A stretch of DNA of 61,737 nt, filler included, from a candidate division TA06 bacterium SM23_40 (GTDB lineage: Bacteria; LJUI01; SM1-40): assembly GCA_001303705.1 (NCBI GenBank). It is 4 parts of 4 records of this genome, joined end to end, with 100 filler letters (N's around TTAATTAATTAA, not from the genome) between each part and the next. Parts side by side here need not be neighbours in the genome. Positions count along the whole stretch, not along the records: positions 41,547 to 51,605 come from LJUI01000089.1; 3 more parts are not named here. One strand, given 5' to 3'. The position numbers were made by a program, and so were the translations under genes. Shown piece after piece: positions 45,796 through 47,847 of the stretch (positions within the stretch are counted from its first letter, which is position 1; every line of letters begins with the position of its first letter). The notes beneath the pieces are model-generated. The model made no database searches, was not told where the DNA came from, and worked only from the letters and a program-made list of their open reading frames with translations.

Positions 45796-47847
45796 ATGCG
45801 GTACGAGAGAGTGCTACTGATCGCCATGGCGATCGTGTTGTCGGTCAGTGTCCTGTCGGCGATTGCATCAGAGCGGATGGTGCTGGCAGAGGGATTCACT
45901 AACACCGGGTGAGCGTCGTGTCCGCCGGCCGACAGTGTGTTGGCCTTTCTTGCCGAAACATACGATACCATTCTGGCTGTCATTTCGTACCATACCTGGT
46001 GGCCGAGTGGAGCGGATCCGTTCTATCTGGCGAATATCGCCGAGAGCACTGCCCGGATCAACTACTACGGGGTCAACTACACCCCTGATTCCTGGTTCGA
46101 TGGAACGCTCCATGGAGAGTGGATCTGGACTACCTGGGAGAGTAAGGTTCTGAGCCGGTACAGTGTGGCGAGCCCCCTCGAGATACACCTCGACGCGACG
46201 CTGGCTGAGGTGCCGATGGGAGGCAGGGTGACCGCCACTGTGCTGCAGACCGAACCATCCGTGCCCTCGGATCTGCGGCTGCGGTTCGCAGTCACCGAGT
46301 CTGCCCTCGGTTACGGCGGCGAGGAGTACGAGGATGTGTTCCGCGACATGTTCCCGGATGTCGCGGGAGTCTCGATCGTGACCATCTTCGGCGACAGCAT
46401 CACTGAATCGGCCGATTTCATCGTCTCTCCGGAGTGGGATCTCGCCAACTCCGAGATCGTCGTCTTCGTTCAGAGCGATGTGACGCGCGAGGTCGTCCAG
46501 GCGGCGAAGATGGATGTCCCTCTCGACGTGCCATACTGCAGGGCGGTCGGCGTCGTCGTGAATGACAGCGGCGGCGACGGCGACGGACGGGCAGAGGGGG
46601 GGGAGACGGTCGATCTCGTCATCACTATCGAGAACGGCGAGGGCTGGCTCGATGCCACGAATGTCTTCGCGGTGCTGAGGACTGACGATGCCGATGTCAC
46701 GGTGACCGATTCGACAACTGCTTTCCCCGACCTTCCCGCGGGATCCTCGGGGTACAACGAAGGAGATGACCTCACGATCTCTGTGGCGCCGGGTGCGGAG
46801 CCGCACCTCGCCCGGTTCGAGCTCGAGATCAGCACAGATCCCCCGAACTTCGCCCCCACCGATAGTTTCTCGCTCATCATTGGACATCCCGCTGTGATGC
46901 TCATCGACGACGACGGCGGCGGGTCGCTGGAGGAGGAATACCGCACAATACTTGCTGATAGCCTGCACCTCTTCCACGATGAATGGTCGGTGGCAGAACA
47001 GGGATCCCCTGACGGGGCCTGGCTGGCGAACTCTCAGGTGGTGATCTGGTTTACGGGGACGGACACCGCGACGACGCTCGGACCGGACGATATCGTTGCG
47101 TTGAGCAGCTATCTCGATCAGGGCGGAGCGCTGTTCATCAACGGCTCGGGAATCGGGCGGGACATCGGATCGGGGCCGTTCTACGCGGACTACCTCCACA
47201 GCACCTATGTGGGGACGACGGCTGACTATGTCGTACGGGGCGTGCCCGGGCATCCAATCGTCGGCGACTCGATGTTGGTGCTGCTGTGGACAGAGCCCAA
47301 GGAGATCATCTTGCCGGCAACAGGCGGCGACGCCATGCTGTACTATGACCAGGGTGGGGATGCCGCTGTCACGTACGATGACAGCTATCAGGTCGTGTAC
47401 CTGGGATTCAGATTCGAGGCGATCGAGGAAGGCGCTCCGGTGGGCATCCGCAAGTATGAACTGATGGGGCGGATACTGAACTGGATGGGGATCGTTGGTG
47501 TCGGAGACAAGGGCGAGGAAGGCGGTTTTGCCCTCGGAGAACCGCCTCGGCTTCTCGCTCCTAATCGCCCGAATCCATTCCCCGACGCTACTACTATTCA
47601 GTATGTGGTGCCCGGCCGGTCGTCCGGTCGAGTCCCGGTCAGGCTGATGATCTACAATATTCTCGGGCAGCGGGTACGCACCCTCGTCGACCGCGAACTG
47701 ACTCCGGGAGCGTACACCGTGACCTGGGATGGACGCGACAGTGCGGGGATCCAGGCCGGCAGCGGCATCTACTTCTGTCGCCTGGAGGCCGGCGAGGCAT
47801 CCGATGTGAGGAAACTGGTACGTATGAGAGGTACCAGCTCGAGATGA
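45796..47847 (+). CDS. Exported Omp28/thioredoxin-like protein with UxxC motif (probable selenoprotein) and FlgD/T9SS-like C-terminal domain
   Basis: GGAGGAG RBS, ATG 45796, signal peptide, [10 protein letters not shown][TGA 45910-45912]-ASCP in frame with the 636-aa [23 protein letters not shown]. Confidence 0.82.
45927..45945 (+). promoter_or_regulatory. Putative SECIS hairpin
   Basis: GGCCGACA-GTG-TGTTGGCC, 8-bp stem (one G-U), loop G at +23 after the TGA. Confidence 0.6.

Follow-up and report, generated by a model that had tools for sequence, protein, structure and literature searches.

An in-frame TGA within a mis-called gene of candidate division TA06 bacterium SM23_40 and a predicted surface-exported thioredoxin-like selenoprotein

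Thioredoxin-like proteins of the HBP35 and Omp28 kinds are the closest described relatives of the product of the gene considered here, which occupies positions 45796 to 47847 of a 61,737-nucleotide stretch of DNA (the window) from candidate division TA06 bacterium SM23_40. Among the relatives, an activity has been measured only for HBP35 of Porphyromonas gingivalis: the published study (PMC2907840) reports that the thioredoxin activity of the recombinant protein (insulin reduction) is lost on mutation of its two cysteines, that the protein also binds hemin, and that it is required when hemin is limiting. A related selenoprotein family with a UxxC motif was predicted by Zhang and Gladyshev in 2008 as GOS_C (“Hypothetical protein GOS_C”), in a text that contains neither “signal peptide” nor “outer membrane,” and an entry in a table of a 2026 review (PMC13188914) equates GOS_C with NF045500.

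We regard it as highly likely that window 45796-47847 is one mis-called gene for a 683-residue, surface-exported, thioredoxin-like selenoprotein, in which, judging from sequence comparison, TGA 45910-45912 very probably encodes selenocysteine (Sec). Positions given without a contig name are those of the window, and all features of the gene lie on its plus strand.

Reading frame and the selenocysteine column

Read from ATG 45796, the frame comprises 683 codons and a terminal TGA at 47845-47847. Translation with TGA 45910-45912 taken as Sec meets no other stop between these two codons, and homology to other proteins crosses the internal TGA in frame. A Shine-Dalgarno-like GGAGGAG (45785-45791), located by direct reading of the sequence, ends 4 nt before the ATG. 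The internal TGA, proposed as Sec39, is the first position of a UxxC motif (U39-A-S-C42; 45910-45921) and is preceded by EGFTNTG and followed by ASCP and then PAD. Residues 1 to 24 (45796-45867) form a putative signal peptide with a charged n-region, an 18-residue hydrophobic core, and a probable cleavage site after A-I-A (AIA-SE). The AlphaFold model contains a helix at residues 2 to 18, where the predicted local distance difference test score (pLDDT) is lower.

Gene callers open the gene downstream of all these elements. The open reading frame (ORF) under translation table 11 starts at GTG 45937-45939 and encodes 636 residues. We read this GTG as Val48 and as a false start; it falls in the loop of the hairpin described below, and no purine-rich ribosome-binding site (RBS) lies 5′ of it. 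Two database protein entries, P0002 and P0003 (the latter 69% identical to the product), also begin at this position. An earlier note, made from the sequence alone, had proposed that an RBS, an ATG, a signal peptide, and an active-site motif were hidden 5′ of an ORF called from 45937, and the called ORF and each of the hidden elements are present in the sequence. The observation goes beyond chance because the stretch before the TGA holds the family’s invariant Glu and a conserved Thr and because the TGA coincides exactly with the Cys column.

That column was followed through homologs within and beyond this genome (labelled G000). Residues 1 to 260, searched by tblastn, match seven copies of the domain in G000: four TGA forms (the gene at 45796-47847 on contig C38, and copies on C58, on C124, and at C19:62636), two Cys forms (on C121 and C5), and one degenerate copy that lacks the motif (C19:60288). 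Six of 60 other genomes, sampled across the taxonomic domain, have homologs. Five TGA forms occur in G035 and one in G016, all at the first-Cys column of CxxC; a locus flagged with an in-frame TGA in another genome (G002:C85) gave no tblastn alignment over the column and was left uncounted. Retrieval with a 12-sequence alignment yielded 55 homologous loci in named genomes, in which 71 domain copies cover the column. Cys is encoded in 48 of them (25 TGT and 23 TGC) and TGA stands in 21. The remaining two are a Gly and a displaced TGA (L114), which lies four alignment columns later, probably through an alignment shift, and was tallied as “other.” Trp is found at the first position of UxxC in none of the 71. 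The alignment of TGA with Cys, and the occurrence of TGA-bearing homologs in several phyla, agree with what the selenoprotein reading in the earlier note had predicted. The TGA forms come from metagenome-assembled genomes (MAGs) labelled Gemmatimonadota, Zixibacteria, Ignavibacteria, and Eisenbacteria and from unclassified bacteria, and in alignment A4 the residues at positions 16 (U or C), 19 (C), and 74 (P) are invariant.

Two further copies deserve mention. At C19:60249-63580 a tandem pair is formed by the degenerate copy, 719 residues long with the full architecture of a type IX secretion system (T9SS) cargo and no CxxC, and a shorter Sec-form copy directly 3′ of it. A Cys-form homolog of the domain is present at 4001-4723 of L138 (CP070767.1), a MAG labelled as a Methanobacteriota archaeon; the archaeal label could reflect transfer or a binning or labelling problem.

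The TGA is reproducible. A metagenome contig assembled separately, with 2 differences from C38 in 10,059 bases, keeps it, and 45910-45912 is unchanged in contigs of four further public runs, which stem from four studies (marine sediment, seawater, and estuary), with word depths of 5.7 to 23. Five other assemblies in all therefore carry it, although runs X3 and X4 may not be independent because their contigs are identical. Run X6 holds a diverged estuarine strain with 22 differences in 418 nt, which also retains the TGA. Its changes at codons 35, 36, and 42 are synonymous, which indicates purifying selection on the reading frame both 5′ and 3′ of the TGA, and codon 40 changes from Ala to Pro. 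This last change, G>C at window 45913, gives U-P-S-C, the form also found in the Gemmatimonadota homolog L090. When metagenomes were scanned with the whole protein, a single near-identical contig was recovered, and the other 24 matches covered the C-terminal domain only.

Hairpin and selenium-decoding machinery

The hairpin that the earlier note had placed right after the TGA is an 8-bp stem with the 3-nt loop GUG at 45927-45945 (−11.1 kcal/mol) and resembles a selenocysteine insertion sequence (SECIS). Its stem begins 14 nt after the UGA and its loop 25 nt from the U of that codon, and it is among the strongest of the hairpins in TGA forms. Because folding energy by itself does not discriminate at 60% GC, a positional criterion was used, namely, a perfect stem of at least 4 bp and a loop of 3 to 10 nt that starts 16 to 37 nt from the U and has a G in its first two bases. 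Such a hairpin is present in 29 of 31 distinct TGA forms versus 21 of 62 Cys forms, and one of −5 kcal/mol or stronger is present in 25 of the 31 versus 4 of the 62. The Cys forms L093 and L112, which have a near-identical downstream peptide, are without the hairpin of their TGA relatives. The hairpins of different clades lie in different registers.

Profile searches of G000 found a complete set of genes for Sec decoding, as the earlier note’s reading required. selA (557.9 bits; cut-off, 267.9) and selB (391.9 bits; cut-off, 242) are side by side on contig C5, and selD (374 bits, above its curated cut-off), which has an in-frame TGA of its own, adjoins selC, a tRNA-SeC with anticodon TCA, on contig C58. 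The selA profile also scores above cut-off in all three of the other genomes with TGA forms; selA was not found in either of the two genomes with Cys forms only (100% and 98% complete), which is a small sample.

Two of the seven paralogs stand directly beside these selenium-machinery loci and on the same strand. On C5 (4268-8754, minus strand) a Cys-form, lipoprotein-like paralog precedes selA and selB, and on C58 (183-3961, plus strand) tRNA-SeC and selD precede a Sec-form paralog whose product is 41% identical to that of 45796-47847 over residues 8 to 678. The C58 paralog has a TAG at about 3200-3260, with one copy of a 30-nt direct repeat on either side, and its homology resumes in the same frame past the TAG, which may be either an assembly artefact or the mark of a recent disruptive duplication. 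selA, selB, and selD were not found near homologs in 83 other loci (the 55 in named genomes and 28 further). The presence of paralogs beside both selenium-machinery loci, an arrangement seen only in G000 among the genomes examined, is the most interesting loose end of this analysis.

Domain architecture, predicted function, and alternative readings

The full-length AlphaFold model has a mean pLDDT of 90.1, and the N-terminal two-domain module modelled alone reaches 96.3. The first domain of this module (residues 27 to 122; 45874-46161) has a thioredoxin fold, with the UxxC motif and a conserved T-P that probably corresponds to the cis-Pro of the fold; model residues 2 to 105 match thioredoxins with Z scores of 7.3 to 9.4. 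The second (residues 125 to 240; 46168-46515) is an Omp28-type β-sandwich that superposes on PDB entry 2r2c over 105 residues (Z score, 10.5; root mean square deviation [rmsd], 1.9 Å). The exported UxxC selenoprotein with an Omp28- or thioredoxin-like N terminus that the earlier note proposed is thus supported by the fold, the Sec/Cys column, and the decoding machinery.

Three domains follow. An Ig-like β-sandwich (residues 248 to 362; 46537-46881) is delimited by the secondary structure and pLDDT of the model and has no Pfam match. It is succeeded by a GATase1-like α/β domain (residues 365 to 567; 46888-47496), which in structure comparison matches the middle domains of GH42 enzymes, ThuA-like proteins, the N-terminal domain of IFT52, and GATases with Z scores of 13 to 18. 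This domain is probably noncatalytic, as it has no Cys or His that is invariant across 39 homologs. The last domain (residues 585 to 676; 47548-47823) is a FlgD-Ig-like T9SS type A C-terminal sorting domain, in line with the sorting-type C terminus described in the earlier note. It scores 24.9 bits against TIGR04183 (cut-off, 23) over residues 592 to 675 and 31.5 bits against PF13860 (FlgD_ig; cut-off, 27), and it falls below the threshold of PF18962 (15 versus 27 bits). The secretion system is represented in G000 by PorU (631.5 bits; cut-off, 420) and SprA (504.6 bits; cut-off, 200). The C-terminal domain of PorU matches profile A1 (E value, 6.3e-6), and it has 46 further matches in G000, the product of 45796-47847 included.

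The Ig-like, GATase1-like, and sorting domains (46537-47847; residues about 250 to 680) also recur together as a C-terminal module in many secreted proteins. These are larger (about 850 to 1100 residues) and lack the thioredoxin module, and the recurring module has no Pfam family.

The standard bacterial mechanism suggests that SelB carrying Sec-tRNA(Sec) would bind the hairpin at 45927-45945 and insert Sec39, so that U39-x-x-C42 would open the first helix of the thioredoxin fold. From the domain content, the signal peptide would direct the protein to the Sec translocon, after which the type A sorting domain would be recognized by the T9SS and the protein would pass through SprA; PorU would then remove the sorting domain and link the protein to the cell surface. 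Homology to HBP35 points to a surface thiol:disulfide (selenol:disulfide) oxidoreductase, in which Sec39 might attack a disulfide or another electrophile and Cys42 resolve the resulting selenenyl-sulfide. The Ig-like and GATase1-like domains would probably serve as a spacer or binding scaffold.

Several points weigh against this interpretation. The hairpin criterion was written after the sequences had been viewed and was modelled on bSECISearch, and the nominal p of 1e-12 for the hairpin contrast is overstated, since the sequences are related. TGA and Cys forms are not distinguished by the minimum free energy of the 45 nt 3′ of the codon (p, 0.17), and folding of a 91-nt segment gave a z score of −0.53. 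The signal peptide was judged by eye only. None of the runs recorded as RNA contains the stretch, which has no bearing on expression either way. The matches to the named families most like the N-terminal module lie below threshold: NF045500 gives 29.1 bits with the whole protein and 29.7 with the domain alone against a cut-off of 200, and PF11551 gives 28.8 to 32.6 bits, just below its threshold of 34.9. Finally, we know of no reductant for a thioredoxin outside the outer membrane.

The genomic setting bears on function to a limited extent. The window joins four contigs (C35, C37, C38, and C39) of one draft genome through runs of N at 31277-31376, 41447-41546, and 51606-51705, and gene-neighborhood arguments are invalid across these joins; the selenoprotein gene lies on C38 (LJUI01000089.1; window 41547-51605; 10,059 bp). 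The probable Sec-MvhD that the earlier note mentioned in the window may accordingly belong to a different contig of the genome. The draft comprises 189 contigs (2.88 Mb), with a completeness of 89.8%. All 60 genomes offered as relatives match it at domain level only, and it is therefore without close kin among the sampled species representatives. A gene for a copA-type P1B ATPase with two HMA domains (47852-50341, plus strand; Pfam) starts 4 nt 3′ of the stop of the selenoprotein gene on the same strand, so that cotranscription of the two is likely. Upstream, ccmA, ccmB, ccmC, and a DUF302 gene are separated from the selenoprotein gene by a 200-nt gap. The earlier note took these neighbors as a hint of copper or thiol redox work. 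When copA, DUF302, ccmA, ccmB, ccmC, MATE, and the upstream ORF were searched by tblastn against the 55 named loci (with 4 kb of flank on each side) and the 28 further loci, a set without close orthologs, copA, ccmB, and ccmC were found in none; DUF302 occurred in one (L094), and the other matches were to generic ABC ATPases. In the absence of conserved synteny, the proposed functional link to copper and ccm is dropped as unsupported.

If the TGA were a true stop, the locus would be a pseudogene or would encode a 636-residue protein from GTG 45937 that lacks both signal peptide and active site. This is the form of the table 11 ORF and of public entries P0002 and P0003, but we consider it very improbable: no RBS precedes the GTG, a T9SS cargo needs a signal peptide to enter the periplasm, the 38 codons 5′ of the TGA hold the invariant Glu and the F-T motif of the family and show only synonymous changes in the diverged strain, and the TGA recurs at this column in 31 distinct homologs from several phyla. 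It is barely credible that these 38 codons are instead a leader ORF, with the hairpin at 45927-45945 plus TTTCTT acting as an intrinsic terminator or attenuator of a downstream gene. A terminator scan did flag the hairpin as terminator-like, and as its sole such site, yet shuffled sequence gives a mean of 1.0 such sites; moreover, “leader” and downstream ORF make up one continuous homologous domain in the Cys forms, and the criterion that detected the hairpins of the other TGA forms takes no account of T-runs. Although the TGA is a single base from the Cys codons TGC and TGT, the probability that it is a sequencing or assembly error is negligible, given its presence in the separate metagenome contig with two single-nucleotide differences elsewhere, in contigs of the four other runs from four studies, and in three paralogs of the same genome. 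Decoding of TGA as an ordinary amino acid under translation table 4 or 25 would explain the open frame and nothing further. A reassigned code of this kind is excluded because TGA ends 538 of the 1034 open frames of at least 400 codons in G000, including the selenoprotein gene, copA, and ccmC; the homologs have Cys at the column, with one Gly and never Trp, and the genome has complete Sec machinery, so that we allow this reading next to no probability.

Accepting a surface selenoprotein, its role could be mainly to bind a metal, chalcogen, or haem (hemin as in HBP35, or copper together with CopA) and not to catalyze. This seems unlikely to us. The hemin binding of HBP35 and its importance under hemin limitation, in the study cited above (PMC2907840), would fit such a role, as would the position of the gene between ccmABC and a same-strand copA and the weak profile hits to ScsC proteins, suppressors of copper sensitivity (E values, 0.005 to 0.2). 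The ScsC matches, however, span the generic CxxC helix only and rank among those to ordinary thioredoxins, the copA, ccmB, and ccmC neighbors recur at none of the 55 and 28 loci and DUF302 at only one, and no haem- or copper-binding motif was identified in the protein. We favor a surface selenol:disulfide oxidoreductase. A bolder proposal, which we offer as a long shot, is that T9SS-sorted UxxC proteins are the first surface-anchored bacterial selenoenzymes, that they act on an extracellular nonprotein substrate and not on protein disulfides, and that the paralogs in this genome, two of which adjoin the selenium machinery while the copy at 45796-47847 adjoins copA, may be tied to the acquisition of selenium, another chalcogen, or a metal at the cell surface.

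Comparison with HBP35 and Omp28-related selenoproteins

In an anaerobic sediment bacterium, the predicted protein would carry Sec on the outer face of the outer membrane. In public protein sets, the selenoprotein gene and many of its relatives are N-terminally truncated, without signal peptide and active site, and their function and location are consequently misread across Zixibacteria, Gemmatimonadota, Eisenbacteria-labelled, and other uncultured lineages. The family also includes Sec and Cys versions that occur together in one genome, natural pairs suited to the question of what advantage Sec gives a redox protein at the surface.

HBP35 (5Y1A) shares the N-terminal arrangement of a thioredoxin domain and an Omp28-type β-sandwich, superposing over 216 of 222 residues (Z score, 25.1; rmsd, 2.4 Å). 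Each protein ends in a T9SS C-terminal sorting domain, and the signal peptide of HBP35 has a putative counterpart in residues 1 to 24 here. In an HMMER profile alignment, the E-x-F-T-x3-C-x-x-C-P motif of HBP35 falls on the Cys columns of the profile. HBP35 differs in having Cys in place of Sec, in its length of 344 residues, and in lacking the Ig-like and GATase1-like domains; it is only 15 to 16% identical to the 683-residue protein and comes from a host-associated species of Bacteroidota.

DUF1223 proteins (PF06764; Atu2684, 2AXO) have the same two-domain fold (Z score, 20.0) and, in an HMMER alignment, a near-identical active-site motif. They are about 220 to 270 residues long and have no T9SS tail, and the match to PF06764 is 21 to 24 bits against a cut-off of 30.7. 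In Omp28 of P. gingivalis (PF11551, NF033782, 2R2C), the likeness is to residues 125 to 240, as described above for the 2r2c superposition. The NF033782 match is 32.7 to 36.3 bits against a cut-off of 150, and Omp28 has a lipoprotein signal peptide in contrast to the putative type I signal peptide seen here by inspection.

The UxxC motif in a thioredoxin-like fold is the feature shared with NF045500, “Omp28-related selenoprotein.” Because it scores 29 bits against the cut-off of 200, the product of 45796-47847 is a remote relative and not a member of that family, which is matched at an E value of 0.001 or lower by 35 of 38 members of the clade to which the gene at 45796-47847 belongs (best E value, 2.5e-25). 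The NF045500 model covers 377 positions, whereas the 683-residue protein has three further domains, including the T9SS tail. A literature search found no paper linking type IX secretion, HBP35, or Omp28 with selenoproteins, although the supplements of selenoproteome papers, which were outside the search, might list such genes. The earlier note overrated the novelty of the locus, as Omp28-related UxxC selenoproteins had already been catalogued, as GOS_C in 2008 and as NF045500. What is new here is the T9SS-sorted, five-domain, HBP35-like form of these already known selenoproteins.

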